From Sphingomonadaceae bacterium (GTDB lineage: Bacteria; Pseudomonadota; Alphaproteobacteria; Sphingomonadales; Sphingomonadaceae), in assembly GCA_046153565.1 (NCBI GenBank), contig JBJXDU010000030.1, forward strand, positions 3,793 to 67,792: 64,000 nucleotides of DNA, read 5' to 3'. The notes beneath the pieces were generated by a model. That model saw nothing but the letters and a program-made list of their open reading frames with translations. It did no database searches and was not told the origin of the DNA. The translations under genes were made by a program, and so were the position numbers. How positions within the stretch are numbered: the first letter of the stretch is position 1; each line of letters begins with the position of its first letter. Positions 1 to 34,196 of the stretch are shown in pieces.

Positions 1-475
1 GCCCTTCGGCGAGCGTTGCCCCGCGCACCGCTTCGATTCTAGGGTCAGTCAGCCAGCCAAAATCCGGGATTGTCGTCGCGTCCGCCTTGTCCGCGTCACC
101 CATCCAGATCCAGAGCAAAGCGTGGCGCTCGACCAGCGGATAGACCGCCACACTGGCCCGCGGCATGGTGCCCGGATGCGGCGAGAAAATGCATTTGCCG
201 TCGCCCCCGAACCGCAATCCGTGATAGGGACAGGCAAGCGCGCCATCGACCACAGCACCATTACCCAGCGGCGCAAAGCGGTGTGGGCAGCGCCCGCCAA
301 TCGCCTTTGCCATGCCATCTCCATCGCGGAACAAAGCGACAGGCTCTTCAAGAAACACTTTGGCTTGCGGCGCCTCACGCAGCGCGTCAGCCCAACCTGC
401 GACATACCACGCATTGCGCAGGTAAGGCGCGCCACTTGACGAAAGTTTGGGCATTGGCGCGCGGGCATCGGTCAT
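1..475 (-). CDS. VanA-like Rieske [2Fe-2S] oxygenase (aryl O-demethylase / phthalate-family oxygenase component). N-terminal part only, because the gene runs off the window edge.
   Basis: Absent from the ORF track because there is no stop inside the window. My reverse-strand translation from the ATG at 473-475 gives MTDARAPMPKLSSSGAPYLRNAWYVAGWADALREAPQAKVFLEEPVALFRDGDGMAKAIGGRCPHRFAPLGNGAVVDGALACPYHGLRFGGDGKCIF...HALLWIWMGDADKAD. The NAWYVA start, the CPHR..CPYHG Rieske motif and IWxWxGD are typical of VanA-type oxygenases. An AGGGGG SD lies 7 nt upstream, and an alternative ATG is at 476-478. Track ORF 49..468(-) is a different, Arg-rich frame. Confidence 0.75.
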   Translation of the reverse strand, partial: MTDARAPMPKLSSSGAPYLRNAWYVAGWADALREAPQAKVFLEEPVALFRDGDGMAKAIGGRCPHRFAPLGNGAVVDGALACPYHGLRFGGDGKCIFSPHPGTMPRASVAVYPLVERHALLWIWMGDADKADATTIPDFGWLTDPRIEAVRGATLAEG

Positions 476-487
476 CATTTAGCCCCC

Positions 488-1018
488 TTACAGATACAAC
501 GCCGTGTTCACGGCCAAGCCATGCTCTTTGCAGTGGCTTTCATAGTGGTTGATGAACCACCACACATCGAGCGTTTCGACATGATTGCCCGCTTCGTCAT
601 AAAATTCGTTCGCGCCCTGCATGTGGAACAGCGCCTTCATGCCTTCCGCATTATCGGTCACCAAAGTGTGCGCGGTGCCCGGCGTTTCGGTGATGAACTC
701 GCCCGCCTTGCATACCCAATCATATTCGAGATAGCGGAAATTGCCTTCCAAGCAGACCGCCCACACCTTGCCGCGATGCTTATGCGTGCCGATGACGCCG
801 GGGCTTTTGATCCAGAGGATGTTGACATAGACATTTTCGCGCACGTCAAACGCAAGATGGCGGATCGCCGCATTATCGCCGAAGGGCACCCAAGGACTTT
901 CGGCCTCCGACCCGCCGATATAAGTGCCCTCAATGCCGTGCTTTTTGATTGTGTCCGCATAGGGCTCGGCAACGTCAACGATCTTGTAAGCACCTGACGG
1001 CGGGGCGGTCATCGCCAT
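488..1018 (-). CDS. Cupin-fold dioxygenase, 2,4'-dihydroxyacetophenone dioxygenase (DAD)-like, paralog 1
   Basis: 176 aa, similar to the roughly 177-aa DAD subunit. Cupin metal motif GTHKHRG ... ETPGTAHTLV. Conserved blocks SPWVPFGDNAAI, RYLEYDW and DVWWFI.HYE.HC are shared with paralog 2. AAGGA SD 8 nt upstream. 12 nt gap to the Rieske gene. Confidence 0.72.
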   Translation of the reverse strand: MAMTAPPSGAYKIVDVAEPYADTIKKHGIEGTYIGGSEAESPWVPFGDNAAIRHLAFDVRENVYVNILWIKSPGVIGTHKHRGKVWAVCLEGNFRYLEYDWVCKAGEFITETPGTAHTLVTDNAEGMKALFHMQGANEFYDEAGNHVETLDVWWFINHYESHCKEHGLAVNTALYL

Positions 1019-1029
1019 GGCGTTTGTCC

Positions 1030-1566
1030 TTAGAGATAGAGTTTGGGATTGATCGGAATGCCGTTCGCCTTGCAGTGCGTTTCATAGTGATCGATGAACC
1101 ACCAGACATCGGCGGTGAAAACGAACGCGGCATTTTCATCGTAAAATTCAATCGGCCCCTGCATCCAGCCGAACAGCTTGGTACCCTGCGGATGATCGGT
1201 GACGAGCGTATGGCTTTCGCCGGGCACTTCGAGGATGAGCCCGCCGGGCGAGGCAACCCAATCATATTCAAGATAGCGCACACTGCCTTCAAGGCAGACC
1301 ATCATGATCGTGCCGCGGTGCAGATGCGTGCCAATCGCGCCTGCGCTCTTAACCCACAGAATATTCGAAAAAATGCCCTGCCGGACGTCGAACGCGAGAT
1401 GCTTGATCGCGGCATTATCGCCAAAAGGAACCCAGGGGCTGTCATCGTCGCTCATCGCGTCGATATAACGCCCACCGGGGCTCAGCCGCGCGACCAATTC
1501 CTTGTGCGCAAAGGGCACATCGACGATCTTGGCGAGGTTTGAAGGGGGCGCGGTTATTGATGACAT
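1030..1566 (-). CDS. Cupin-fold dioxygenase, DAD-like, paralog 2
   Basis: 178 aa. GTHLHRG ... EVPGESHTLV cupin motifs. Colinear with paralog 1 by eye. AGGAG SD upstream. 11 nt gap to the next gene. Confidence 0.72.
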   Translation of the reverse strand: MSSITAPPSNLAKIVDVPFAHKELVARLSPGGRYIDAMSDDDSPWVPFGDNAAIKHLAFDVRQGIFSNILWVKSAGAIGTHLHRGTIMMVCLEGSVRYLEYDWVASPGGLILEVPGESHTLVTDHPQGTKLFGWMQGPIEFYDENAAFVFTADVWWFIDHYETHCKANGIPINPKLYL

Positions 1567-1576
1567 GGCAGGGCTC

Positions 1577-2110
1577 CTATCGGATCAATGTATCAACATA
1601 GTCCGCGCCAATGCCGTTGCTGGCATAATGCGCGCGCGCGGCGGCGATATAATCAAACACGTCATAATGGCCGACAGTCGCGCCGCTTTCGTCAAGCCAC
1701 ATCAGCGGGCCTGATACGACGAAGAAGACCTTCATTGGTTCGGGGCTGTCATAGCAAACGAGCGTATGCGACTCGCCGGGCGTTTCATAAACGAAATCGC
1801 CCGCAGTCGCCGTCCATTCATGCTCAAGATAGGCCCATTTGCCGCTGATCGTATAGGCCCAGATCGGGTGCGGATGATAATGGCGGCTGACCAGCCCCGG
1901 CCCGCTCGACATCAGGACATCGGCCCACATATTCTTGGCCGGGCTGATCCAGACGGGCTTTGACGAAACGGTCTCGCTGATCGGCACCCAGTGGCGCGGA
2001 TCGCCCTCGGCAATTTTGGAGGCATAAACTTCAGGAAGGCTGCCGTCCTTGAACACCTTTTCAATCGGCTTGATATCTTTCCAAAATTCAAGATGCGGCG
2101 ATTCAGGCAT
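1577..2110 (-). CDS. Cupin-fold dioxygenase, DAD-like, paralog 3 (the most DAD-like of the three)
   Basis: 177 aa. SRHYHPHPIWAYTISGKWAYLEHEWTATAGDFVYETPGESHTLV and the C-terminal AHYASNGIGADYVDTLIR match my recollection of the Alcaligenes sp. 4HAP DAD pattern. GAGGAA SD upstream. Confidence 0.72.
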   Translation of the reverse strand: MPESPHLEFWKDIKPIEKVFKDGSLPEVYASKIAEGDPRHWVPISETVSSKPVWISPAKNMWADVLMSSGPGLVSRHYHPHPIWAYTISGKWAYLEHEWTATAGDFVYETPGESHTLVCYDSPEPMKVFFVVSGPLMWLDESGATVGHYDVFDYIAAARAHYASNGIGADYVDTLIR

Positions 2111-2170: not shown

Positions 2171-4732
2171 TTAGAATTTGAATCCAACCTTGGCATACCA
2201 TTCACGCGGCCTGCTAAACGATCCATAGACCTGACCACCGGCAAGCTGCGCCTGTCCCGTGGTCAAATACCGATCCTTTGTCAGGTTCGTTCCGCCAACG
2301 CTAATGTCCCAATGATCGTTGGGTTCACGGTAGGTTATGCTGGCATTGACGAGATCAGTCGCCGGGCGGTTTGTGAGGAAGAAGCCTTCGGTATCATTCT
2401 TGAGCGATGTTGAATGTGTCCAATCGCCAAGGACGATGAACTTCCCGCCGCTGCCGGTTTCAAGTTCAACACGCGGGCTGATATTGAATTTCCATTTCGG
2501 TGTTTTGGGAAGGGTGACACCGGCGGCAACCCCGGCTGCGCCGAACAATCCGGTTGAAGCCGCCACAAAAGCACCCGCATCAACGCGCGTATATTTCGCA
2601 TCGAGATAACCAACTGATGATGTGACCGAGAAAGCCCGGATAGGAGCAAAGGTCGCCTCGATTTCAAATCCGCGAATGCGCGCATCGCCAGCATTGCGGA
2701 TCGTGGGCGATACGCCTTGCTGGAAGTTGAGCTGAATACCCTTGTAATCCGTGTTGAAAATCGCCGCGTTGATCTGCAACTTACGATCAAGCAAAGTCGA
2801 TTTCACACCAAGTTCGTAGGTTCCCGCTTTTTCTTCATTGAAATCAGGTGCGGTTGGCAATGGATTTGAAAGCCGCGTGGTCCAGCCACCGGTTTTATAG
2901 CCTCGTGACCATGATCCGTATACCAACAAATCTTTGCCTGGATGAAGCTGAACGCCTACCTTTGGCGAGAAATTGTTGAATTTCTTCTTCTGCACACCGG
3001 CAATATAATAACGCAACGGCTCCCCGGGATTGGGGAATCCGGCCGCAATCCGGCACGCGTCCGAAATCGGATTGATCGTGATGCACGCTGGCGGCCCCTG
3101 TCCGATGAGCGCAAGTTGATTGAGGATCTTGTAGGTCAAGCCATTAGCGTCGGATTGGAACCCTTCAAATTCCTTGTCTTCGTGCGTGAAACGACCGCCA
3201 GCAGTAAAGCTGATCAGATCATTCACGCTATAATCAACCTGCCCAAAGAAGGCGAAATTTTTGGTCGATAGATTGTTGGGACCATCAACTTGCAACAAGC
3301 CTTCAGCAAAGGTCACATAGTCGTGTAGATTGCCCGATTCCTGAAAGTAATAAGCACCGAGAACATAGTTCAACGTCTTGTCGAGTGCTTTGCCATTAAT
3401 TTGAAACTCTTGGCTGAACTGCCTCTGGTTGGTCGTAAAGCTGGTATGCAGGAAATTCAGCGGCGAACCATCGAGGTCGGTTCCCACATTCCAATCAATA
3501 TTGCGATACGCCGTGATTGATTTCAACGCGACATTGTCACTCAACTCGAAATCAATAACTCCCGAAAAACCATAGCTTTTCAGCTTACTGTAGTTATTGC
3601 CATTGGCATAGCTTGTATCGACATTATTCGTGACGAAACGATTGTCATAGGGCAAGCGGTTATTTGATGGATTGGCGTCGGTATTCGCGCCGAATACGGT
3701 CGGATTGTCAAAGATCGTATTCAAGCCACCAATGCCGCCCAGAAAAGCAAAAGCTGGTGGTCCGCCAATTCCCGCGCTGCAATTATTTGCGTCCGCGACA
3801 ATCGCGCAATTATATGTCCCTGCAAAAACGGCAGGAAAGGTTGCGATTAGCTTGTTTGCCGCCTGGGATTGATCAACATTGGTATAATCACCGCTCAGAG
3901 TGACTTTGAATCGGCCGCCATTGTCCCACTTCAGCTTTGTCCGGCCGCTCCACGTATTGTCGCCGCCTTCGGTGCCAAGACCGATATTGTTGTATCCCGC
4001 TGCCCGGTAATTGGTAACCGGGGTCGACGCGAAGTTTGACGCGCCGGGAAAGGCAATCCGCCGCAGAAAACCGTCGCGGTTCTTGATCGAAAAGCTGACC
4101 GATGATGATAGCGAGTCAGACAGCGGCAGATCGACCGTGCCCCGCGCCTGAAGCAAACGGTAACTGCCGGTTGTCACGTCACCCTTGAACTTAAACTCTT
4201 TGCCGGGATCGTGCGTGACGACTGAAATCGCCCCCCCAATCGTGTTCCGGCCGAACAATGTGCCTTGTGGCCCTTTGAGAACTTCGATCCGCTCAACGTC
4301 GCCAAGCTCTTGGTTGGCACCGATTGACCGCGCGAGATAGACACCGTCCAAATAAGTGCCGACGCCGGGATCGATGTTAAAGGCGAAATCGTTCGCACCG
4401 ATGCCGCGAATATAGGCCGACAAGACATAGGGCGACCCCGAAAACGGCGTACCTGCGTCAAGCGTCACATTCGGTGCAATGTTCGAAAGCGCAGCGACAC
4501 TGGTTACAGCGCGTTCCTTAAGCGCGTCAGCCGTAAACGCCGAAATCGCAATCGGCACGTCCTGAACATTTTCAGCGCGCTTCTGCGCAGTCACAACGAT
4601 TTCAGCGATCCCGCCTTGGTCTTCGGCGGCGGGCTTTGCAGCCGCAGCGGCGGTGCCCTGTGCAAATGCAGGCGCGGAAAGGGCCAAGACCATGGCCGCC
4701 CCCGCGAACAATGAAGCAATATTCACTTTCAT
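2171..4732 (-). CDS. TonB-dependent outer-membrane receptor
   Basis: Signal peptide MKVNIASLFAGAAMVLALSAPAFAQ. Plug region IVVTAQKRAENVQDVP...ERIEVLKGPQGTLFGRNTIGG. Long beta-barrel ending ...AKVGFKF with an aromatic terminus. I prefer the ATG at 4732, preceded by GGAGAGG, over the track TTG at 4750. Confidence 0.9.
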   Translation of the reverse strand: MKVNIASLFAGAAMVLALSAPAFAQGTAAAAAKPAAEDQGGIAEIVVTAQKRAENVQDVPIAISAFTADALKERAVTSVAALSNIAPNVTLDAGTPFSGSPYVLSAYIRGIGANDFAFNIDPGVGTYLDGVYLARSIGANQELGDVERIEVLKGPQGTLFGRNTIGGAISVVTHDPGKEFKFKGDVTTGSYRLLQARGTVDLPLSDSLSSSVSFSIKNRDGFLRRIAFPGASNFASTPVTNYRAAGYNNIGLGTEGGDNTWSGRTKLKWDNGGRFKVTLSGDYTNVDQSQAANKLIATFPAVFAGTYNCAIVADANNCSAGIGGPPAFAFLGGIGGLNTIFDNPTVFGANTDANPSNNRLPYDNRFVTNNVDTSYANGNNYSKLKSYGFSGVIDFELSDNVALKSITAYRNIDWNVGTDLDGSPLNFLHTSFTTNQRQFSQEFQINGKALDKTLNYVLGAYYFQESGNLHDYVTFAEGLLQVDGPNNLSTKNFAFFGQVDYSVNDLISFTAGGRFTHEDKEFEGFQSDANGLTYKILNQLALIGQGPPACITINPISDACRIAAGFPNPGEPLRYYIAGVQKKKFNNFSPKVGVQLHPGKDLLVYGSWSRGYKTGGWTTRLSNPLPTAPDFNEEKAGTYELGVKSTLLDRKLQINAAIFNTDYKGIQLNFQQGVSPTIRNAGDARIRGFEIEATFAPIRAFSVTSSVGYLDAKYTRVDAGAFVAASTGLFGAAGVAAGVTLPKTPKWKFNISPRVELETGSGGKFIVLGDWTHSTSLKNDTEGFFLTNRPATDLVNASITYREPNDHWDISVGGTNLTKDRYLTTGQAQLAGGQVYGSFSRPREWYAKVGFKF

Positions 4733-4806
4733 AACATCCTCTCCTCTCAAGCGCCCGTAACCGGATCATTTTGTCTTGTTATCATGCTATCGCGTTTGTG
4801 CATCAT

Positions 4807-4823
4807 TGTAAGCAACACATATG
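4807..4823. promoter_or_regulatory. Degenerate copy of the TGTATG-N5-CATACA operator, upstream of the TonB receptor gene
   Basis: TGTAAGCAACACATATG matches TGTATGCAAGACATACA (6138-6154) at 13 of 17 positions. The internal dyad symmetry is weak. Confidence 0.3.
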
Positions 4824-4864
4824 ATTTTCGTCAATAGATTTCACCAGGTGAAACTTTCGCCGTG

Positions 4865-6088
4865 CTACCTCTCACCCTTGGCGCCCACGATCCGCGGTGC
4901 GGTCTCGCGCAGGCCAAGTGCGACAATGCCAGCCGCGATGCACAGGCCGACCATCAGCCACATGATCGAATCGCGGCCATAGGCGTCGGACAATGTCCCC
5001 GCGAGTGACGGGCTCAGCACGCCGCCGATCACTTCGCCAATGCCCATGACAATCCCCGTGAGCGATGCGGTGAGTCGGGGATCGACCGACTCGGACGGCA
5101 CTGTCGCCATGAATAGCGGGAAGACCCCGTTCAGCCCCCAGCCAAAGAAGAAGATCAGCGCCATCACCCATGGGCTTCCCGCATAGAAGAGCGCGGCGAG
5201 GGGCAGAATCACGCCCAAAAATGAAAAGCCAATCATGGCGGGCTTGCGGCCAATATAGTCCGACAGCGAAGAGACCGCGAAGCTCCCTATTCCAGCCGAA
5301 ATGCCAAGCGTTGCCATCAGCCATTTCGTCGTATCGGGATCGAAATGCCGCGTCTCGGTGAGGTAGAGCGGCATGAACGCCCAACACACGACGAGATAGG
5401 AAACGAGCAGAATCGAAATCAGCGCGCAAATCTGAACATTTCGATCGGCAAAGGCGGTGGCGATTGTGGCCCTTGGCTTGTCGTCCGCTAGGATCGTTTC
5501 GGGCGCAGGCTCCTTGACCACGAACCAGATGATCGCCGCTGAAATCAGTCCAGGTATTGCGGCGAGATAAAACCCTTCGCGCCAGCCATAAGTCATCGCA
5601 ATCGGGATCAGCAGCAGTGGCGCCAGCGCCGAACCAAGCACATTTGAACCGAAATTTTGCGCAACGCCCATCGCCAGCCCGCGATTCTTTTCGTCTACCT
5701 CGGTCGCAATGATCGAATGGCTGACGGGCATCACGCCGCCTTCAGCTGCCCCCATCAGGATACGCGCACCGAGCAGCATGAAAAAGGACGATGCCAGCCC
5801 CGAAATGACCGAACAGACGCAAAAAGCGATCGTACCAAGCACAATGATTGGCTTGCGCGACCCAAGCCGGTCAGACAGCGCGCCGACGCCAAAGCCAGCG
5901 ATGGCCCAGGTCAGCGACAGACCCGACGAGAGCATCCCAACCTGCGTATCGCTCAACCCCAAATCAGGTTTGACGAAAGGCATAAGGAAATTGAGCGCGT
6001 TGCGATCAAAGAACAGAATACCGAAATTGAGGCTGAGCAGCCCGACCAGCAACGCCTGATAGCCGCCCGAGCGACGTTCTTTCACCAT
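4865..6088 (-). CDS. MFS transporter (probable aromatic acid/anion importer)
   Basis: 407 aa with about 12 hydrophobic segments and the MFS signature GALSDRLGSRKP between TM2 and TM3. It is the first gene of the minus-strand operon. Confidence 0.85.
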   Translation of the reverse strand: MVKERRSGGYQALLVGLLSLNFGILFFDRNALNFLMPFVKPDLGLSDTQVGMLSSGLSLTWAIAGFGVGALSDRLGSRKPIIVLGTIAFCVCSVISGLASSFFMLLGARILMGAAEGGVMPVSHSIIATEVDEKNRGLAMGVAQNFGSNVLGSALAPLLLIPIAMTYGWREGFYLAAIPGLISAAIIWFVVKEPAPETILADDKPRATIATAFADRNVQICALISILLVSYLVVCWAFMPLYLTETRHFDPDTTKWLMATLGISAGIGSFAVSSLSDYIGRKPAMIGFSFLGVILPLAALFYAGSPWVMALIFFFGWGLNGVFPLFMATVPSESVDPRLTASLTGIVMGIGEVIGGVLSPSLAGTLSDAYGRDSIMWLMVGLCIAAGIVALGLRETAPRIVGAKGER

Positions 6089-14255: not shown

Positions 14256-15107
14256 TTACGGCCAGGTCAAAGCCCGCAATAGGGGTTCAAGCGACGTCAA
14301 CAACATGTGCGGCCTCTCTGCAGGCGATAGACCATTTAACGTTTCGGGCTTCATCAACCCAGTTGTCATACCTATACTGACAGCGCCCGCGCCATTGGCC
14401 ATGCGCATTTCGAGTGCTGGATCATCGCCCACAACCACGATGCCGCGCCGATCACCCTTGGCAACCGCCATCGCATCAGCCGCGACCTCGAACGCCACGC
14501 GCGAAGGTTTACCGAGCACTTTGGCGCGCTTGCCCGTCATCGCACTGATCATCTTGTTGATCGCAAAGCTTGATCCGATGCCGCGGCCCGTGGCGGTCGC
14601 GAAGAAGGGCACATGGCTGGCAGTCGTCAGGATCGCGCCGTCCCAGATTGATTGGCACGCAGCTTCCAAATCAGGGAAAGTGAATTCGCGAAACCAGCCG
14701 GTATAGACGGCTTCAACCCCTTCGGCGTCCTCAGACGCGCCAATGATCGTGATACCGGCTTCGCGCAACGGGGCCGCCACCCCGTCGTTGCCGAGCACGC
14801 GCACACGGCGGATCCCCCGCTTCACAAACCAGAGTGCGGCTGATGAAGACGGCGTCATCATCTCCCCGTCGCCTAGGTCAAACCCCGCCGCGCGCAGCGA
14901 CGCAGCATAAGTTGCGGGCGGCTTTGCGGTGCCATTAGTATAGACGCGAAACGGTGTACCGCGCGCGCGCAAGGCGGCAAGCGTCTCGATTGCAAAGGGC
15001 AAGGCCTTATGCCCGCCGCTCGCTGCGTCGCCGAGCGCAATCGTGCCATCCATATCGAATATGAAGCCGGGCGCACGCTGAACCGCTGCGATGCTGTCAG
15101 GACTCAT
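14256..15107 (-). CDS. HAD-superfamily phosphatase (subfamily IIA, NagD-like)
   Basis: 283 aa with the nucleophile motif FIFDMDGT, then YTNGT, then C-terminal VVVGDD. 4-nt overlap with the upstream carboxyltransferase gene. Confidence 0.72.
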   Translation of the reverse strand: MSPDSIAAVQRAPGFIFDMDGTIALGDAASGGHKALPFAIETLAALRARGTPFRVYTNGTAKPPATYAASLRAAGFDLGDGEMMTPSSSAALWFVKRGIRRVRVLGNDGVAAPLREAGITIIGASEDAEGVEAVYTGWFREFTFPDLEAACQSIWDGAILTTASHVPFFATATGRGIGSSFAINKMISAMTGKRAKVLGKPSRVAFEVAADAMAVAKGDRRGIVVVGDDPALEMRMANGAGAVSIGMTTGLMKPETLNGLSPAERPHMLLTSLEPLLRALTWP

Positions 15108-16573
15108 AACGACGCTCCGCCGTGGAGCGCAATCCGCAAACCGCCGCGTTCGACAACGATATCGCGCGCGGCAGGACGCGCGGCAAGTTGCCTGAGCAAG
15201 GCGAGCAAAGGGGCTGCTTCGGGCGTATAAGTGGTGCGAGAGCGGCCCGCACTAAGCATCGCATCAACCTGATCCCCCGGCATCACTGCGCGGAGCAAAA
15301 ATTCCTCGTCGGGCATTTTGGTGCCAAAGGTTTTGCGCAAATCGCCAAGTGCGGGAAAATCAGGTTCGTTCATAATCACTTTGGCTTGAGGCCGATCAAG
15401 GATCGCTGCCTCAACCGCCGCATCGACCGGCCGCGTTGGCTTGCCGAATTTGCCAAGCACGTAGCGGATCACCTGATCGCTCACTTGTGCGTAGCGTTTG
15501 GTGCCGATCACATTCACCAAGGCCTGGCTCATCACCATTTGCGGGAAAGGCGTGACCATGATCGGATAGCCAAGTTCGGCGCGCACTTGTTCGGTTTCGG
15601 CGATGACGGCAGGCAAGCGGTCGCCAAGGCTCAGTTCTTCGAGCTGGCGCTTCGTCGTTGTCATCACCCCGCCAGCGATTTGATGGCGCAGGAAGCTCGC
15701 ATCAAAGGCTTGGGGTGTGCCCGGCGGCAGACCTTCGGCGTGCGCGAGCCGCGTCCAATAATCGGAAAGCTGGCGCAAGGTCGCCCGGTCGATTGACACA
15801 TCGTGCCCCGCCTCGATGAGATTGGCGACCATCCGCTCGGCCTCGGGGAGCGACGAGCCATCGCCGCCGGGACCAATGCCGACATGGATCGCCGATATAC
15901 CTAGCTTCGCCGCCTCAAGCGAGGAAAGCGCGCCCAAGCCCAGCGTATTATGCGCGTGAATTTCGAGCGGGCGATTGCCAATCACCGCCTTAACCGCCGG
16001 GGCCAGGGTGCGGACGCGGTCAACCGACATCAGGCCGCTAGGGTCCTTCAGATAGAAGAGGTCGATGTTCGGGCTAGCCATCAGCGCCTTGGCGAAATCC
16101 GCGTAGAAGGCATCATCATGGACATCGGAAAGCGTGTAGGTGAGCGCAGCCATCACTTCCGCCGGCCCTTCCTGCTTGATGATCCGCGCTGCTTCAATCA
16201 CCGCTGGCACTTCATGCATCGGATCGAGCACGACGAAGCGGCGGATGCCGTTCGCCTGCAACGTCCGGTAGACGAGCCGCATGAATTCAGGATCGGCTTG
16301 CTGCCACGCGATAAAGCGCAGGCCGGTTGTGATTAGCTGAAGCGGCGTCGTCGGCATTGCTGCGCGCATCCGCCTGATCCGTTCCCACGGATTGTTGCGG
16401 AAGTAGCGCACCGCGACTGCCATATGGCTCGACGAGGTGAAATCGACCGCGCGAAAGCCCGCGCGTTCGGTGAGCGCTGCGGCTTGAAGCATATGCGCAG
16501 TGTTAAGGCCGGTCGCGCCCCACAAAGACTGATTGCCATCGCGCATCGTGACATCGACAAGCTGGATGGTCAT
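15104..16573 (-). CDS. Biotin-dependent carboxylase, carboxyltransferase subunit (PycB/OadA 5S-type, no biotinyl domain)
   Basis: 489 aa. N-terminal VDVTMRDGNQSLW TIM-barrel (HMGL-like) motif and HAHNTLGLG, followed by a PYC_OADA-type C-terminal region. 4-nt overlap with the biotin carboxylase gene. Confidence 0.8.
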   Translation of the reverse strand: MTIQLVDVTMRDGNQSLWGATGLNTAHMLQAAALTERAGFRAVDFTSSSHMAVAVRYFRNNPWERIRRMRAAMPTTPLQLITTGLRFIAWQQADPEFMRLVYRTLQANGIRRFVVLDPMHEVPAVIEAARIIKQEGPAEVMAALTYTLSDVHDDAFYADFAKALMASPNIDLFYLKDPSGLMSVDRVRTLAPAVKAVIGNRPLEIHAHNTLGLGALSSLEAAKLGISAIHVGIGPGGDGSSLPEAERMVANLIEAGHDVSIDRATLRQLSDYWTRLAHAEGLPPGTPQAFDASFLRHQIAGGVMTTTKRQLEELSLGDRLPAVIAETEQVRAELGYPIMVTPFPQMVMSQALVNVIGTKRYAQVSDQVIRYVLGKFGKPTRPVDAAVEAAILDRPQAKVIMNEPDFPALGDLRKTFGTKMPDEEFLLRAVMPGDQVDAMLSAGRSRTTYTPEAAPLLALLRQLAARPAARDIVVERGGLRIALHGGASL

Positions 16574-17904
16574 GCGGGCAACCCTTCAAAGAAGCGCGTA
16601 TCGACTCCGCCTGCGATGAAACGGGGATTGGCGGCGATCACACGGTGGAGATCACAAGTGGTGTCGACGCCCTCGATATGGAGTGAAGCCAGCGCCTTCC
16701 CGAGTAAGACGATGGCCTCAGCTCGCGTCGGTGCACTGACGATCAGCTTGCCGATCAGCGAGTCATAATAAGGCGGAACTTCGCGCTCGCTGGCCATATG
16801 TGTGTCAACGCGAATGCCGGGGCCTGCGGGCCAAGCGGCGCGCGTTACCGTTCCAGGCGAGGGCCTGAAATCATCGCGCCACGCTTCAGCGTTGATCCGC
16901 ACTTCAATCGCATGGCCCTCAGGACGCACGTTGGCCTGAGTCAGCGACAACAAGTTTCCGCCCGCGATCAGCAATTGCTGCTCGATCAAATCGATCCCAG
17001 TAAGCGCTTCTGTCACAGGATGCTCAACCTGAATCCGCGCATTCATTTCGAGGAAGTAAAAATCAAAACTCTGCGCATCGACGAGGAATTCGACCGTCCC
17101 TGCACCCTTGTAACTCAAATGTCGTGCCAGTGCGACCGCCGCATCTTCTATCGCCGCGCGCTTGTCGTCGGGCATGTTGGGCGCGGGCGCTTCTTCAACG
17201 AGTTTTTGAAAACGTCGCTGGATCGAGCAATCGCGCGTACCGAGGTGAATGGCGGTTTTGCCATCGCCGAGCACTTGCACTTCGACATGGCGGCCTTGCC
17301 CGATAAAGCGTTCGACATAGATCCGCGCGTCGCCAAAGGCCGCTTGCGCTTCGGCCATTGCCATATCGATTTGCGCGTCAAGCTGATCGGGCGTGTCGAC
17401 GCGCTTCATCCCTCGCCCGCCTCCGCCCGATACTGCTTTCAGCAGCAAAGGATAGCCTGCCACATGAGCTTGGGCACGCGCCGCTGCTTTGTCAGCCGCC
17501 TCGCCGCCGGGAACAACGGGGAGTCCTGCCGCTACGCCCACGCGGCGCGCCATCAATTTGTCGCCCATCGCCTCAAGGCTCGCCACCTCTGGCCCAACGA
17601 AAATTATCCCAGCCGCCGCGACCGCCCGCGCGAAGGCGGCATTTTCTGATAGGAAGCCATAGCCAGGATGGATAGCATCGGCGCATGCCGCTTTGGCAGC
17701 GGTTACCACTGCGTTGATGTTGAGATAGGATCTTGCAGAAGGCGCTGGGCCGACAATCACGACTTCATCAGCCATCTGCGCAGGCAGGCTGCGTGCATCG
17801 GCTTCTGACGCTCCTAAGATCGTCGTCATGCCCATTGCGTTTGCCGTGCGGATAATCCGCAGTGCAATCTCGCCGCGATTGGCAATGAACAGGCGCCTGA
17901 TCAT
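16570..17904 (-). CDS. Biotin carboxylase subunit (ATP-grasp)
   Basis: 444 aa. LFIANRGEIALRIIRTA, HPGYGFLSENA, GGGGRGM and EMNARIQVEHPVTE are canonical AccC-type motifs. Confidence 0.9.
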   Translation of the reverse strand: MIRRLFIANRGEIALRIIRTANAMGMTTILGASEADARSLPAQMADEVVIVGPAPSARSYLNINAVVTAAKAACADAIHPGYGFLSENAAFARAVAAAGIIFVGPEVASLEAMGDKLMARRVGVAAGLPVVPGGEAADKAAARAQAHVAGYPLLLKAVSGGGGRGMKRVDTPDQLDAQIDMAMAEAQAAFGDARIYVERFIGQGRHVEVQVLGDGKTAIHLGTRDCSIQRRFQKLVEEAPAPNMPDDKRAAIEDAAVALARHLSYKGAGTVEFLVDAQSFDFYFLEMNARIQVEHPVTEALTGIDLIEQQLLIAGGNLLSLTQANVRPEGHAIEVRINAEAWRDDFRPSPGTVTRAAWPAGPGIRVDTHMASEREVPPYYDSLIGKLIVSAPTRAEAIVLLGKALASLHIEGVDTTCDLHRVIAANPRFIAGGVDTRFFEGLPA

Positions 17905-17912
17905 CGGTTATG

Positions 17913-18359
17913 TCATGCCAGCCGCAAGAGCGCGGCTCCTTTGCCAACCATCGCGCCATTGTCGACAAGGACCGCATCGATAATCCCGTCAACCCCGGCA
18001 TGAACGGGGTTCATCAGCTTCATCGTTTCGATAATGCCGACAACCGTATCGGGCGAGACTGGGTCTCCAACCGTAACAAAGGGCGCGGCCCCCGGCGCTG
18101 GTGCGCGGTAAAAGGTGCCGGGCAGCTGGGCGCGGACGACCTTTCCGTCTTCAACCGCTTCAGCACTGACGCCCAACTCGGTCGCGACCCGCAGCGTATC
18201 ACTCTCGTCAAATGTCCACTCCTGCGTGTGGCCATCGCCGTCGCGCGCAACTCGCAAGCGGAACCGCGATGTTTTTACATCAAGCATCGCATAGTCGCTG
18301 CCGTCAAGGATCGAGACGATTTCGGCAACATCGTCGGGTGAAAGCGGAAGTTCGGCCAT
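17913..18359 (-). CDS. Biotin carboxyl carrier protein
   Basis: 148 aa. The C-terminal biotinyl domain carries the attachment motif IIETMKLMNPV (E-x-M-K). Confidence 0.8.
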   Translation of the reverse strand: MAELPLSPDDVAEIVSILDGSDYAMLDVKTSRFRLRVARDGDGHTQEWTFDESDTLRVATELGVSAEAVEDGKVVRAQLPGTFYRAPAPGAAPFVTVGDPVSPDTVVGIIETMKLMNPVHAGVDGIIDAVLVDNGAMVGKGAALLRLA

Positions 18360-18361
18360 GG

Positions 18362-19579
18362 TCAGCGCTTCATCATCGCCCGCGCGGCACCAATGATGGC
18401 GTCCGAAAAGGCCTCATCATTGAAATGCGCATCGACTGCGGTCACTGGCACATGCGGCGGGATCACGCTTTTCAAATAGTCAGCGAAAGGCGCAGGCAGG
18501 CTTGCATCCTGAAGATGGCCTTCGGCACTGTCATGGCTTGAAAAACCACCCAGCGGGGTGAAGATTTGCACGGGTCCCCGGGCTTCGGCAACGATCTTGG
18601 CGAGATGATCGGCAAGGCCTTTAAGTTCGGGCAATTGGGTGCGCACGGCGGTGAGCTGCGGATTATGCTCATGATAGCGCTTGCCTGGGAATTGCGCTTT
18701 GGCAGCATCAATGGGGCCTGCGATGATGAAATCGGCATTGCCCGGCGCCCAGATCGTTGGAACGCCGCGCGTCATCCCTGCTTTGCCGCGATCAGCGCCG
18801 GTGTCAGCGAGACCACCGTTCAAATGGTCGACGATTTCGGTCACAGACAGATCAAGCACCAGCGCGACATCGCGGTCGCCCGCAATCCCATCGAGCGTTG
18901 GCCCGCCAGCACCCGAGGAGTGGAACACCATAACCTCAGCGCCGTCGCCTTCGAGCGCTTCGCGGATGCGCTTTACGCTTTTCTCGGTTGTACCAAGCGT
19001 CGTAATGAGAACCAATGGTCGTTCAGCGCCAACTGTCGGGTCATAACCCTTCGCCATACCCGCGACCGCAAGCGCGCCGTTGCGATAGACATCGCGGCTG
19101 ATACTGTTGATCCCCGAAATGTCGGTGACCGCGTTGAGCATCGCAATATCCTTGACGCCCATATAAGGTGCCGTGAAACCCGACGCCATTGTCGACACGA
19201 TCAGCTTTGGCAGGCCGTAGGGCATGCTCTGCATAAGCGCTCCGGCGAGTGCTGACCCCATTGACCCACCAACCGCCAATATGCCCGAAAGTGGATGCGC
19301 CGCGTGATAGGCATGAGCCGCTTTGATCGCGCCTTCGATCATGACACCCTGAATCTTGCCCTCATGGCCAATAGCGCGGATCGCTTCGATTGATGTGCCT
19401 GCCGCAGCCGCCACATCTTCGGGCGAAATTTCTGCGCCGCCAATCGTTTTGCGCACACTGGGATCAAGATGGACAACAGCAACGCCAGCCGCCTCGAGCG
19501 TGCGCCGCACGAAGCGGGCCTCGGTCTCTTTGGTGTCTTGCGTAATGATCAACATAACGCGCGGTGTTTCGGCCATCAT
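18362..19579 (-). CDS. UPF0261 (Tm-1 N-terminal-like, putative ATP-binding) protein
   Basis: 405 aa with a two-lobed Rossmann-like pattern (VMLIITQDTKETE..., GILAVGGSMGS, LITTLGTTE, FHSSGAGG) that I associate with the UPF0261 family. It is the first gene of the five-gene operon. Confidence 0.65.
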   Translation of the reverse strand: MMAETPRVMLIITQDTKETEARFVRRTLEAAGVAVVHLDPSVRKTIGGAEISPEDVAAAAGTSIEAIRAIGHEGKIQGVMIEGAIKAAHAYHAAHPLSGILAVGGSMGSALAGALMQSMPYGLPKLIVSTMASGFTAPYMGVKDIAMLNAVTDISGINSISRDVYRNGALAVAGMAKGYDPTVGAERPLVLITTLGTTEKSVKRIREALEGDGAEVMVFHSSGAGGPTLDGIAGDRDVALVLDLSVTEIVDHLNGGLADTGADRGKAGMTRGVPTIWAPGNADFIIAGPIDAAKAQFPGKRYHEHNPQLTAVRTQLPELKGLADHLAKIVAEARGPVQIFTPLGGFSSHDSAEGHLQDASLPAPFADYLKSVIPPHVPVTAVDAHFNDEAFSDAIIGAARAMMKR

Positions 19580-25995: not shown

Positions 25996-27234
25996 ATGCC
26001 CCAATTCGCCAATATGAAAGCCTTACTGGCGCAAGATCGCACAGGCTATACGCTGCCGCGTGATCTCTATGTGAGCGACGCGGCCTTTGCCTTTGACACA
26101 CAGGTGATGCTGAAATCAGTCTGGCTTTACGCCTGTACTGTCGCGCATGTGAAGCAGCCGGGCGACTATTTCCTGTTCGAGCTGGGGCATAACTCGATTA
26201 TCATTGTGCGCGGCCGCGACGGCGACGTTCGCGCATTCTGGAACAGTTGCCGCCACCGCGGCGCGCAGCTCTGCGCTGACCAAAGCGGGCGGATGGCGCG
26301 GATCATGTGTCCCTATCATCAATGGACATACGGCCTTGACGGCAAATTGCTAGCCGCGCGCAATATGGGGGCCGATTTCAGCAAGGACGACCATGGCTTA
26401 TCACCCGTAGCGGTTGAAATCATTGGGGGGCTGATCTTCATCTGCATGAGTGACACGCCACCGCCAATTGATCGCGTTAAGGCCGACATCGCCGAACAGA
26501 TTGCGGTCTATGATCTCGCGCATATGAAAGTTGCGGTGCAGGATAATTTGATCGAAGACGCCAATTGGAAGCTCGTGATGGAAAATAATCGCGAATGCTA
26601 TCACTGCGACGTCGGCCATCCCGAACTGATAAGCGTGCTCGGCACCTATGGTTTTGGCAAAGGATTGCCCGAGGACGGCGACACCGATATGGTCGATGAC
26701 CGCGCTTATGATGACATGGTCGAGGCTAAACGTGCAGAGTGGAAGGCGCTTGGTATTTACCGTGACCTTGTCGAATTTCCTGATGGGTGGTGGCACCGGA
26801 TTGCCAGGCTGCCGCTGGCGAACGGTGCCGTGACGCAATCAATTGATGGCAAGCTCGCCTGCCAGAAGCTGATCGGGCCTTTCACGCAGCCTGAAAGCTC
26901 TAGCCTGTCGGTCTGGACACAGCCCAATAGTTGGCATCATTTCTGTTGTGATCATGTCGTCACCTTCTCGCTGACCCCGCTTGCCGCAAACAAGACGTTG
27001 CTGCGCACAAGCTGGCTGGTGCACGAAGATGCGGTCGAAGGGGTCGATTATGACCCTGATCATATTGCCGCTTTATGGCGCACGACCAACAAGCAGGATT
27101 GCCATTTTTCGAGCATCAACCATCTGGGCATATCGTCTGATGGTTATGCTCAGGGGCCCTATGCGGTCGAGGAAAAATTGGTCGACGATTTCAAGCGCTT
27201 CTATGTGGATGCTGCGAAGGCCGCGCTGACATGA
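25996..27234 (+). CDS. Rieske non-heme iron oxygenase, GbcA/Stc2-like (N-methyl quaternary amine demethylase type), paralog 1
   Basis: 412 aa. Rieske motif CRHRGAQLC...CPYHQWTY. Mononuclear iron motif ENNRECYHCDVGHPE. Confidence 0.83.
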   Translation: MPQFANMKALLAQDRTGYTLPRDLYVSDAAFAFDTQVMLKSVWLYACTVAHVKQPGDYFLFELGHNSIIIVRGRDGDVRAFWNSCRHRGAQLCADQSGRMARIMCPYHQWTYGLDGKLLAARNMGADFSKDDHGLSPVAVEIIGGLIFICMSDTPPPIDRVKADIAEQIAVYDLAHMKVAVQDNLIEDANWKLVMENNRECYHCDVGHPELISVLGTYGFGKGLPEDGDTDMVDDRAYDDMVEAKRAEWKALGIYRDLVEFPDGWWHRIARLPLANGAVTQSIDGKLACQKLIGPFTQPESSSLSVWTQPNSWHHFCCDHVVTFSLTPLAANKTLLRTSWLVHEDAVEGVDYDPDHIAALWRTTNKQDCHFSSINHLGISSDGYAQGPYAVEEKLVDDFKRFYVDAAKAALT

Positions 27235-28484
27235 CGCGGTTTAGCGCGCTTAGCCTGTTCACCAATGCGCTTGGCGGTCATAAGGATTGGCCGCGGCAAT
27301 GGCCAGATGCGGCACCCAAGCCAGCCTATGATGCGATCATCGTTGGCGGCGGCGGCCACGGCCTTGGCGCGGCTTATTATCTCGCCAAAAAATACGGGAT
27401 CACTAAGGTTGCGGTCATTGAAAAGGGCTGGATTGGCGGTGGCAATACCGGGCGGAACACCACGATCATTCGCTCAAACTATCTCTACGACGAAAGCGCG
27501 CATCTCTATGATCATGCGGTGAAGCTGTGGGATGGCCTGAGCCGCGAACTCAATTATAACGTCATGTATTCAAAACGCGGCGTCATGATGCTCGCGCACA
27601 ATGTCCATGATGTGCAAAGTTTCAAGCGCCATATTCATGCCAACCGGTTGAACGGCATCGACAATGAATGGCTGACCCCTGAACAAGCCAAGGCCTATTG
27701 CCCACCGCTCAGCATCGATCCGGGCGCCCGTCACCCCGTATTGGGCGCCGCATTGCAACGGCGCGGGGGAACGGCGCGGCATGATAGTGTCGCTTGGGGC
27801 TACGCGCGTGCGGCGGCTGCGCTCGGCGTTGATATCATTCAGAATTGCGCCGTCACCGGCGTGCGCCGCGATGCACAGGGAGCAATCGAAGGCGTTGACA
27901 CAACGCGCGGCTTCATTGCGGCGAAGAAAGTTGGCGTCTCAGCTGCAGGTAATACGTCGATGATCATGAATATGGCGGGGCTGTCGTTCCCGCTCGAAAG
28001 CTATCCGCTGCAAGCACTCGTGTCCGAACCAGTGAAGCCAATCTTTCCCTGCGTCGTAATGTCAAACACGGTTCACGCTTATATGAGCCAATCGGACAAG
28101 GGCGAGCTCGTTATCGGCGCGGGCACCGACCAATATGTCAGCTATTCGCAGCGCGGCGCGCTCCACATCGTTGAACATACGCTTGCGGCGATTTGCGAGA
28201 TTTTCCCGATTTTCTCACGGATGCGGATGTTGCGTTCATGGGGCGGAACTGTCGACGTCACCCCGGATCGGTCGTGCATTTTGGGCAAGACTCCGGTGCC
28301 GGGCCTTTACGTCAATTGCGGCTGGGGCACGGGGGGCTTCAAGGCAACGCCGGGCGCTGCCGACTTGCTTGCCTATACAATCGCCAAGGATGAACCGCAC
28401 CGCATCAACGCGCCGTTCACGCTTAACCGGTTTCGCAATGGCCGGTTGATCGATGAGGCCGCGGCAGCAGCGGTGGCGCATTGA
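27231..28484 (+). CDS. soxB: Heterotetrameric sarcosine oxidase beta subunit
   Basis: 417 aa. DAIIVGGGGHGLGAAYYLAK, then the typical SoxB run GNTGRNTTIIRSNY. The operon order is soxB-D-A-G. Confidence 0.9.
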   Translation: MTRFSALSLFTNALGGHKDWPRQWPDAAPKPAYDAIIVGGGGHGLGAAYYLAKKYGITKVAVIEKGWIGGGNTGRNTTIIRSNYLYDESAHLYDHAVKLWDGLSRELNYNVMYSKRGVMMLAHNVHDVQSFKRHIHANRLNGIDNEWLTPEQAKAYCPPLSIDPGARHPVLGAALQRRGGTARHDSVAWGYARAAAALGVDIIQNCAVTGVRRDAQGAIEGVDTTRGFIAAKKVGVSAAGNTSMIMNMAGLSFPLESYPLQALVSEPVKPIFPCVVMSNTVHAYMSQSDKGELVIGAGTDQYVSYSQRGALHIVEHTLAAICEIFPIFSRMRMLRSWGGTVDVTPDRSCILGKTPVPGLYVNCGWGTGGFKATPGAADLLAYTIAKDEPHRINAPFTLNRFRNGRLIDEAAAAAVAH

Positions 28485-28485
28485 T

Positions 28486-28758
28486 ATGATGCTGATCCCC
28501 TGCCCTTACTGCGAAGAAGCGCGTCCCGAAATTGAATTTGCTTATGCCGGACAAGCCCATATCGCGCGCCCTGCTGACCCTTCGACACTGAGTGACCAAG
28601 AATGGGAAGCCTTTCTGTTCATCCGCGCCAATCCGCGCGGACGACATAATGAACGGTGGCGGCATGTGCATGGGTGCGGGCGCTTTTTCAATGCGGTGCG
28701 TGACACCGTGACCGACAAGTTTGAAACAACGTACAAAGCGGGCGAGGCGCGGCGGTGA
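28486..28758 (+). CDS. soxD: Sarcosine oxidase delta subunit
   Basis: Trimmed to MMLIPCPYCEEARPEIEFAYAGQAHI, the SoxD zinc-ribbon start, giving about 90 aa. It starts 2 nt after the soxB stop. Confidence 0.85.
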   Translation: MMLIPCPYCEEARPEIEFAYAGQAHIARPADPSTLSDQEWEAFLFIRANPRGRHNERWRHVHGCGRFFNAVRDTVTDKFETTYKAGEARR

Positions 28759-31712: not shown

Positions 31713-32214
31713 TATGCTGACCATCACTAGCCCACTGCCCTCTACGCCTGCGACGTTCGCGGATGTAACGATCAGCGTGGCACCCCCGCTCGCCCGCTAT
31801 TCACTACGCGCGCGCGACCGCGTCACGCTTGAGCAAGTGGTAGGGTTTACCTTGCCATCGATGATTGGGCAAACGATCGGCGGCGTCGCCTGCCTTGGTC
31901 CAGACGAATATTATGCCCGGCTGCCCGAAGGGACTATGATCGCAACAGGCAACGGCTTGCCAGTCAGCGTAACCGACGTAAGCCACCGCGCAGTGGGCAT
32001 CATCGTTGAAGGCGCAGACGCATGGCGCGTGCTCGCTGCCGGTTGCCCGCTTGATCTCGAACGCTTCGTCGTGGGGCGCACCGCGCGCACAATTTATGAA
32101 TTGGTTGAGGTGATCATTTACCGCGAGAGTGAGACCCGTTTCCACATCGATGTCTGGCGCAGCTTTGCGCCTTGGCTGTGGGGAGCGATGAACGCCGCGG
32201 CCGGGGCTATGTAA
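31705..32214 (+). CDS. soxG: Sarcosine oxidase gamma subunit
   Basis: 169 aa. Call based on its position after soxA (8-nt overlap) and a size typical of SoxG. The sequence itself is weakly diagnostic. Confidence 0.75.
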   Translation: MADMLTITSPLPSTPATFADVTISVAPPLARYSLRARDRVTLEQVVGFTLPSMIGQTIGGVACLGPDEYYARLPEGTMIATGNGLPVSVTDVSHRAVGIIVEGADAWRVLAAGCPLDLERFVVGRTARTIYELVEVIIYRESETRFHIDVWRSFAPWLWGAMNAAAGAM

Positions 32215-34033: not shown

Positions 34034-34196
34034 TGGCGCTTAGCCCTGACCCGTCATGGGCTTTGATCATCGCCTTCATCCGTGGATCCCAGAAATCGGC
34101 AATATGCTGCGCGGTCGCGCGCGTTGGATCGGGATCAGTCGCTAGGTTGGCGGCGATATGATTGGCCGAGCGCACCAACCGTTCAAGCGTCGTCAT
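33993..34196 (-). CDS. fdsD: NAD-dependent formate dehydrogenase delta subunit
   Basis: 67 aa. LVRSANHIAANL...ATAQHIADFWDPRMK resembles FdsD. Lies directly after fdsA with a 4-nt overlap. Confidence 0.7.
   Translation of the reverse strand: MTTLERLVRSANHIAANLATDPDPTRATAQHIADFWDPRMKAMIKAHDGSGLSAIAAAAIATFHESA

Follow-up and report, generated by a model that had tools for sequence, protein, structure and literature searches.

Three tandem cupin genes in a sphingomonad aromatic-catabolic operon: a predicted ortholog of 2,4'-dihydroxyacetophenone dioxygenase and two putative subfamilies with altered pockets

Bacterial removal of two- and three-carbon side chains from lignin-derived phenolic ketones is only partly known, and the described routes rely on ATP-dependent carboxylation or coenzyme A (CoA) chemistry. 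2,4'-Dihydroxyacetophenone dioxygenase (DAD) has its known setting in the classical route that leads from 4-ethylphenol via 4-hydroxyacetophenone and 2,4'-dihydroxyacetophenone (2,4'-DHAP) to 4-hydroxybenzoate (PMC4219425). DAD is a homotetramer in which Tyr93 is hydrogen-bonded to the alpha-hydroxyl group and the reaction intermediates, Glu108 contributes to the O2 site, Trp61 and Asp63 form hydrogen bonds to the phenolic hydroxyl group of the substrate, and Phe43 and Phe129 stack against its ring, with Phe129 also lining the pocket of the peroxy intermediate (PMC4219425). Here we describe three tandem genes, termed A, B and C, that encode predicted members of this family in a Sphingomonadaceae bacterium (assembly GCA_046153565.1, contig JBJXDU010000030.1, positions 3,793 to 67,792), and we refer to the whole 64,000-nucleotide stretch that was analysed as the window.

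Among the closest described systems is a cluster from Novosphingobium sp. MBES04, designated G-II/L-III (MBENS4_1158-1161), whose products are named 'DAD' (1161), 'tRNA modification GTPase' (1160), a short-chain dehydrogenase/reductase (SDR; 1159) and 'GroES' (1158), and which is adjoined by an AraC gene (PMC10866074); the 'GroES' is read here as a zinc-dependent alcohol dehydrogenase (Zn-ADH). Guaiacylglycerol-beta-guaiacyl ether raised transcript levels of the four genes 44-, 16-, 8- and 3-fold, and a hardwood lignin preparation raised them 7.6- to 88-fold, with hydroxypropiovanillone (HPV) and 2,4'-DHAP acting as effectors and vanillin having no effect (PMC10866074). This evidence is purely transcriptomic, and the paper treats three of the four products as hypothetical (PMC10866074). 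A table in the SG61-1L paper lists 'two DAD genes' upstream of a dehydrogenase. These cupins go unmentioned in papers on HPV catabolism, pinoresinol, MarK, aromatic dimers and G-diketone, and a tandem set of three DAD paralogs was not found in the literature searched.

The three genes of the window lie on the minus strand as follows:
1577-2110, minus strand: gene A, an open reading frame of 177 residues, predicted DAD ortholog
1030-1566, minus strand: gene B, an open reading frame of 178 residues, DAD-family cupin
488-1018, minus strand: gene C, an open reading frame of 176 residues, DAD-family cupin

Genes A and B are separated by 10 nucleotides and B and C by 11, and a Shine-Dalgarno-like motif stands 5' of each ATG (GAGGAA, AGGAG and AAGGA, as listed for the three genes). 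The first-pass annotation, made from the sequence alone, had described three consecutive genes of 176-178 residues with gaps of 10-11 nucleotides and a Shine-Dalgarno motif each, and this is confirmed here, the coordinates agreeing exactly. When compared with orthologs from four other genomes, each gene had a ratio of nonsynonymous to synonymous substitution rates of 0.05-0.10, and all three are thus under strong purifying selection. Given these ratios and the presence of orthologs in dozens of species, A, B and C are functional genes rather than chance open reading frames. No further copies of A, B or C were present in the 64-kb window.

All three proteins matched the Pfam family Cupin_7, each above the gathering score, and share the HxH...H motif, as the first-pass annotation had noted. 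It had also described two close paralogs and a third that was divergent and most DAD-like, which is borne out by the identities: B and C share 57% identity, while A is 28% identical to either. Protein A aligned end-to-end with the structure of DAD from Alcaligenes sp. 4HAP (PDB 4P9G; phmmer E = 2.5e-76, 61.8% identity over 170 residues), and the same structure was matched by B (E = 4e-18 to 6e-18, 33% identity to the Alcaligenes enzyme) and C (E = 8e-23, 34%). AlphaFold2 models of C (pLDDT 92.5) and B (pLDDT 85.5) had the DAD structures 5BPX and 4P9G as top structural neighbours (TM-score 0.81-0.85 on the target), followed by 3EBR and 3CJX and then by Dke1. Sequence and predicted-fold matches therefore agree with the first-pass assignment of all three proteins to the DAD family and of the divergent one to a true DAD ortholog. 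They fit a mono-cupin fold of about 175 residues that is extended at the N and C termini as in DAD.

Residues with roles assigned in DAD (PMC4219425) were compared in sequences drawn from related loci, 67 of type A, 63 of type B and 75 of type C. All of these, and the three window proteins, have the iron ligands His76, His78 and His114 without variation, and Tyr93 and Glu108 were likewise invariant across all A, B and C sequences compared. The histidines sit in the motifs RHxHP and EGHTLV in DAD, the first of which reads THxHRG in B and C. The substrate pocket, on the other hand, differed in a fixed and family-specific manner. A retains Trp61, Asp63 and Phe129, with Phe43 replaced by Ile in 67 of 67 sphingomonad sequences; B has Phe or Tyr for Trp61, Asn for Asp63 and, alone among the three, Gly for Phe129; and C has Tyr for Trp61 and Asn for Asp63 but keeps Phe129. 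Aromatic residues persist at positions 43 and 61 in both B and C. At the DAD dimer interface, A keeps Tyr85, Tyr107 and Ile130 as well as Phe105 and Phe128, whereas B and C replace the first three, together with Phe105 in B and Phe128 in C. Identity among the related-locus sequences was 85-90% within each family, 53-64% between B and C, and 24-33% between A and either of the others. On sequence grounds, A is an ortholog of the characterised DAD, and B and C fall into two separate DAD-family subfamilies, each with intact catalytic residues and an altered pocket.

None of the NCBIfam models is specific to A, B, C or the neighbouring Rieske protein described below. B- and C-type cupins are often mis-named 'tRNA modification GTPase' in NCBI and UniRef (for example P0004, P0042, P0057, P0194 and MBES04 gene 1160), which hides them from keyword searches.

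Relatives of C were detected in 385 genomes in a scan of one genome per species. The 80 closest loci were classified by comparing every open reading frame with the window proteins, and the counts that follow refer to the 66 with enough flanking DNA. Almost all of the 80 were from Sphingomonadales (Novosphingobium, Chakrabartia, Sphingomonas and Altericroceibacterium), and one gene order recurs among them: a major facilitator superfamily (MFS) transporter, a TonB-dependent receptor, A, B, C, a Rieske oxygenase and an SDR, often followed by a cytochrome c and a flavoprotein of the VAO/PCMH family. The complete A-B-C triplet was found in 53 of the 66 loci, with A+C in six, B+C in five and C only in two. 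Novosphingobium rhizosphaerae LY (L044) and N. subterraneum (L039) are examples of species with the full cluster. The orthologous SDR was present in 63, a receptor directly upstream of the cupins in 62, a Rieske ortholog (at least 55% identity) in 54 and the cytochrome c with the flavoprotein in 35, while an MFS ortholog lay upstream in most related loci and also beside solitary C genes of Beta- and Gammaproteobacteria. A plasmid search gave matches as well; the region inspected carried no annotation. In the two loci closest to the window lineage, L005 (8843-9979) and L020 (8816-9952), a different VanA-type Rieske gene stands between B and C; it replaces the gene that usually follows C and is 32% identical to it.

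Other combinations of the three genes also occur. Altererythrobacter atlanticus (L088) has only A+B, and this locus and L042 share the MBES04-type cupin-pair module; Sphingobium nicotianae (L090) has B alone, and named B-type homologs are almost all from Sphingomonadales. In Aurantiacibacter hainanensis (L089, 4422-12019), genes for an esterase and a Baeyer-Villiger-type flavin monooxygenase come before B+C, and those for the SDR, two Zn-ADHs and a metallo-beta-lactamase-fold protein come after, a cluster in which two alternative ketone-cleaving strategies appear together. Paraburkholderia, Chromohalobacter and Paenalcaligenes have a single C-type gene with an MFS transporter, the orthologous SDR (57-64% identity) and a Zn-ADH. 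The transporters of these solitary-C modules are of the sugar type, one module includes an OprB porin, and the regulator beside the C gene was AraC-type in two of three look-ups, a type also found beside the sphingomonad clusters, and XylR-type in one. B- and C-type genes have one constant partner, the SDR, orthologs of which (57-85% identity) accompany these cupins in Alpha-, Beta- and Gammaproteobacteria; in NCBIfam it matches glucose 1-dehydrogenase, FabG-type reductases and gluconate 5-dehydrogenase best, and meso-butanediol dehydrogenase as well.

A-type orthologs are found outside the sphingomonads in Polymorphum and a Steroidobacteraceae genome, where they are 64-66% identical to A and lie in the same cluster as a thiamine diphosphate (ThDP) enzyme and an SDR. 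The ThDP enzyme is directly adjacent to the DAD ortholog in one locus (L091, 6196-8534) and in the same cluster in the other (L092, 1786-8534), and no B, C or Rieske gene was found beside the DAD orthologs of these loci. A Rieske hydroxylase gene beside these DAD orthologs would have spoken for an acetophenone hydroxylase role of the Rieske enzyme, but their neighbours are the ThDP enzyme and the SDR. Aryl alpha-hydroxyketones are also substrates of ThDP lyases such as benzaldehyde lyase, and the combination of ThDP enzyme, DAD ortholog and SDR may represent a second kind of acyloin module.

Within the window, the cupin genes are part of an operon transcribed from right to left in the order MFS transporter, TonB receptor, A, B, C and Rieske oxygenase. 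The remaining features of this region are:
4865-6088, minus strand: MFS transporter of the aromatic acid/metabolite:H+ symporter type (NCBIfam MFS families)
4805-4834, minus strand: sigma-70-like promoter match before the receptor gene (TTGACG, 18-nucleotide spacer, TACAAT; 10/12 consensus; a pattern match only)
2171-4750, minus strand: TonB-dependent outer-membrane receptor (NCBIfam TonB-dependent receptor families), 60 nucleotides upstream of A
1-478, minus strand: 5' part of a VanA/DdmC-family Rieske oxygenase gene with its start at 478, continuing past the left edge of the window (355 residues in full)

A scan for terminators and promoters gave nothing above background except the promoter-like site before the receptor gene. 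The 60-nucleotide gap between the receptor gene and A (2111-2170) holds a G+C-rich inverted repeat (GGGCGG...CCGCCC) followed by TCTTC, which was missed by the consensus scan and could be a partial terminator or attenuator.

The continuation of the operon is carried by a metagenome contig (L001) that is 99.7% identical to the window over their overlap and encodes the complete Rieske/VanA_C oxygenase (355 residues), an SDR (274 residues), a small cytochrome c and a flavin adenine dinucleotide (FAD) protein of 539 residues. The full Rieske gene product matches Pfam Rieske and VanA_C, bears a CPH-17-CPYH motif at residue 64 and has dicamba demethylase DdmC as its best PDB match (8e-61). The first-pass annotation had placed a VanA-like O-demethylase oxygenase after the cupins; membership of the VanA/DdmC Rieske family is upheld by the Pfam and PDB matches, while 'O-demethylase' is a family name only. 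The FAD protein, which lies in the part of the operon at 2755-4691 of the metagenome contig, matches nsVAO of a Novosphingobium sp. (PDB 9FFK/9FGE) with an E-value of 2e-293. nsVAO is a 4-alkylphenol-oxidising enzyme of the VAO/PCMH family, in the eugenol-hydroxylase clade; in vitro it had weak activity on vanillyl alcohol, and its authors left an endogenous cytochrome possible as acceptor (PMC7617285). The flavoprotein encoded here bears a twin-arginine leader and the adjacent cytochrome c a signal peptide, which together suggest a periplasmic flavocytochrome dehydrogenase similar to p-cresol methylhydroxylase, and not an oxidase. For nsVAO, an enzyme whose structure has been solved but whose function is unassigned, the operon suggests both a physiological setting and a cytochrome c as natural partner.

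Directly upstream of the operon on the same strand are genes for LigK, LigU and a LigI-like hydrolase, with those for a LigJ-like hydratase, LigA, LigB, LigC and PobA on the opposite strand, and the organism carries funnelling genes of the p-hydroxyphenyl (H), guaiacyl (G) and syringyl (S) types. As the first-pass annotation had listed, PobA, a formate dehydrogenase and the full set of genes for protocatechuate 4,5-cleavage are present.

The explanation that we somewhat favour, as a little better than an even bet, is that A, B and C are three independent alpha-hydroxyketone-cleaving dioxygenases that differ in substrate and serve a pathway leading from 4-alkylphenols to aromatic acids. They would be mononuclear Fe(II) dioxygenases of three-histidine cupin fold, co-transcribed in one catabolic operon. 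A would bind an aryl alpha-hydroxymethyl ketone (2,4'-DHAP or a methoxylated analogue) to the iron through its keto and hydroxyl oxygens, insert O2 and release an aromatic acid and formate. B and C would cleave other alpha-hydroxyketones, for example with longer or bulkier groups at the carbinol carbon, to an aromatic acid and acetate or glycolate. Their substrates may be supplied by the ever-present SDR, through dehydrogenation of vicinal diols or through oxidation, combined with hydroxylation, of 1-aryl-alkanols; as a constant companion of these genes, the SDR fits a role for B and C in receiving SDR-derived alpha-hydroxyketones. In the pathway as a whole, the TonB receptor would take up a 4-alkylphenol-type lignin fragment, the periplasmic flavocytochrome (nsVAO-like flavoprotein and cytochrome c) would hydroxylate its benzylic carbon, the MFS carrier would import the hydroxylated product, the SDR would oxidise it to an aryl ketone and the Rieske oxygenase would hydroxylate the carbon adjoining the carbonyl. 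The cupins would then cut the side chain, and the resulting 4-hydroxybenzoate or vanillate would pass to PobA and the adjacent protocatechuate 4,5-cleavage genes. We know of no gene for the acetophenone hydroxylase of the classical 4-ethylphenol pathway, and assignment of the Rieske oxygenase to that step is therefore a guess. We infer every substrate in this scheme and the role of the Rieske oxygenase, and set them against the observed gene structure, family, catalytic residues, pocket changes, gene order and independent occurrence of the cupins.

Several points weigh against this pathway. The nearest solved relative of the Rieske protein is an O-demethylase, with side-chain hydroxylation by this protein being our own extrapolation, and the Rieske gene is absent from the clusters examined outside the sphingomonads. 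The flavoprotein's relative nsVAO was only weakly active on vanillyl alcohol in vitro (PMC7617285), and MBES04 did not grow on the inducing phenylpropanone (PMC10866074). Modules of C, SDR and Zn-ADH with a sugar-type MFS transporter, once with an OprB porin, equally suit non-aromatic diols, and no enzymology of the B or C subfamily came to light in the literature on DAD, alpha-hydroxyacetovanillone and Hibbert ketones or on cupins of lignin degraders. In addition, the window contains an operon resembling marK-acvCDEF of the acetovanillone carboxylation pathway:
14256-19579, minus strand: marK-acvCDEF-like operon, comprising the four genes below
18362-19579, minus strand: UPF0261 kinase
16570-17904, minus strand: biotin carboxylase
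15104-16573, minus strand: carboxyltransferase
14256-15107, minus strand: HAD phosphatase

Phosphorylation and carboxylation of acetovanillone via MarK/AcvCDEF have been described for N. aromaticivorans (PMC12624787). With this operon, which is predicted to handle acetovanillone by carboxylation, acetophenones would already have a DAD-independent route in the organism.

The first-pass annotation had offered two ideas for why there are three paralogs, namely that they are specialised for different rings or that they form a hetero-oligomer, and neither is supported. If A, B and C all cleaved alpha-hydroxyacetophenones and were tuned to H, G and S rings, respectively, three paralogs would be at home in an organism with H-, G- and S-type funnelling genes; pocket residues do vary by family, and the Ile found in place of the ring-stacking Phe43 in sphingomonad A could fit a methoxy group. 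However, the residues replaced in B and C are those that bind the para-hydroxyl group, which H, G and S rings have in common, and the loss in B of Phe129, beside the cleaved carbon, implicates the side chain rather than the ring. Identity of 28% between A and the other two is also far beyond the needs of adaptation to a methoxy group, the genes are found in every pairwise combination, and C stands alone, next to an SDR and a Zn-ADH, in bacteria that have no further genes of aromatic catabolism in these clusters, a context that does not resemble lignin funnelling. Ring specialisation is accordingly improbable, and since the para-hydroxyl-binding and scissile-carbon residues differ and C stands alone elsewhere, different side chains or substrate classes fit better. 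Assembly of two or three of the paralogs into one mixed enzyme would agree with the gaps of 10-11 nucleotides, the retention of the triplet in 53 of 66 loci and the oligomeric nature of DAD itself. Yet other genomes hold A alone, B alone, C alone, A+B, A+C and B+C, the characterised DAD is homotetrameric, each of the three proteins has a complete active site, and B and C carry other residues at positions of DAD's dimer interface. The free combinations and the interface replacements led us to reject this idea as very improbable; an obligate hetero-oligomer is unlikely, while B and C may form a mixed dimer.

The main rival, to which we give a low probability, is that B and C act on non-aromatic substrates (aliphatic acyloins or diol-derived diketones) or perform other cupin chemistry and were merely recruited beside DAD. 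They have lost the phenol-binding residues, the minimal modules pair C with an SDR matching sugar or polyol enzymes, a polyol-type Zn-ADH, a sugar-type MFS transporter and in one case an OprB porin, and the next structural neighbour after the DAD group is the acetylacetone dioxygenase Dke1. In contrast, the sphingomonad genes lie inside an aromatic operon beside lig and pobA, and the MBES04 homologs respond specifically to 2,4'-DHAP and to aromatic ketones derived from lignin, with no induction by vanillin. Furthermore, the aromatic residues at positions 43 and 61 persist in both proteins and Phe129 in C, and solitary C is accompanied in two of three look-ups by a regulator of the AraC type that is also seen beside the sphingomonad clusters. 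A narrower possibility within the aromatic setting, and also an unlikely one, is that B and C are two new DAD-type classes that cut three-carbon alpha-hydroxyketone side chains, forming an O2-dependent route to vanillate that needs neither CoA nor ATP. Their substrates would be Hibbert ketones of the 2-hydroxypropiovanillone type and 2,3-dihydroxy-1-guaiacylpropan-1-one, the latter made by the Rieske hydroxylase from HPV, a product of beta-O-4 cleavage. If this were true, Novosphingobium and its relatives would use B and C together with DAD to shorten the side chains of products of beta-O-4 cleavage or reductive depolymerisation in parallel to HpvZ/Vce and Acv/MarK.

The first-pass annotation had also proposed the formate dehydrogenase of the window as a route for the formate released by a DAD-type reaction, a link that proved weak. 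The genes concerned are:
34193-37036: formate dehydrogenase with FdhD and a NuoF-like subunit, more than 30 kb from the cupins
25996-32214 and 42212-43456: betaine/one-carbon (C1) island with two GbcA-like Rieske oxygenases and sarcosine oxidase subunits

The formate dehydrogenase adjoins genes for the metabolism of glycine betaine, sarcosine and formaldehyde, and given this setting and its distance from the cupins, the proposed link to DAD was given no weight. The betaine/C1 island includes SoxB (27231-28484) and a 985-residue open reading frame that is probably SoxA (28755-31712), is adjoined by genes for a glutathione-dependent formaldehyde dehydrogenase and the formate dehydrogenase, and looks unrelated to the cupins.

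If the favoured reading of three independent dioxygenases is correct, small cofactor-free iron enzymes that convert alpha-hydroxyketones into vanillate-type acids would give engineered routes of lignin valorisation a simple funnelling step. More than 50 sphingomonad species have retained the operon, and in one studied strain a related cupin-pair cluster ranks among those most strongly induced by lignin. The DAD family is an established one, and these genes already carry DAD-family labels in databases; what could be gained is new substrate specificities and not a new principle or mechanism. As such, the triplet is a good experimental lead for the catabolism of lignin side chains.

Compared with the known systems, the window proteins are closest to DAD (EC 1.13.11.41), characterised from Alcaligenes sp. 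4HAP and Burkholderia sp. AZ11 (4P9G, 5BPX), with which A, B and C share the fold, a length of about 177 residues, the three-histidine site, Tyr93 and Glu108. A is 62% identical to DAD and also shares Trp61 and Asp63, whereas B and C are 33-34% identical and lack these two residues and several at the dimer interface, B being without Phe129 as well; the characterised DAD is, moreover, a single homotetrameric protein. The next-best neighbours of B and C in sequence and structure are likewise small mono-cupins, namely Reut_A0381 (3EBR) and Reut_B4571 (3CJX) of Ralstonia eutropha/Cupriavidus, which have no known function, and Dke1 (3BAL), which is 15-16% identical and, unlike DAD-type enzymes, cleaves a beta-diketone. 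For the 4-ethylphenol/4-hydroxyacetophenone pathway (Hopper, Darby), the operon has a candidate for each step, in the form of the flavocytochrome, the SDR, the oxygenase, DAD and PobA, but this pathway leaves the two extra cupins unexplained. The MBES04 cluster G-II/L-III differs from the operon in having two cupins instead of three and a Zn-ADH where the operon has the Rieske oxygenase and flavocytochrome; like the operon, it combines adjacent DAD-family genes with an SDR that follows them, and in MBES04 this arrangement is induced by lignin fragments.

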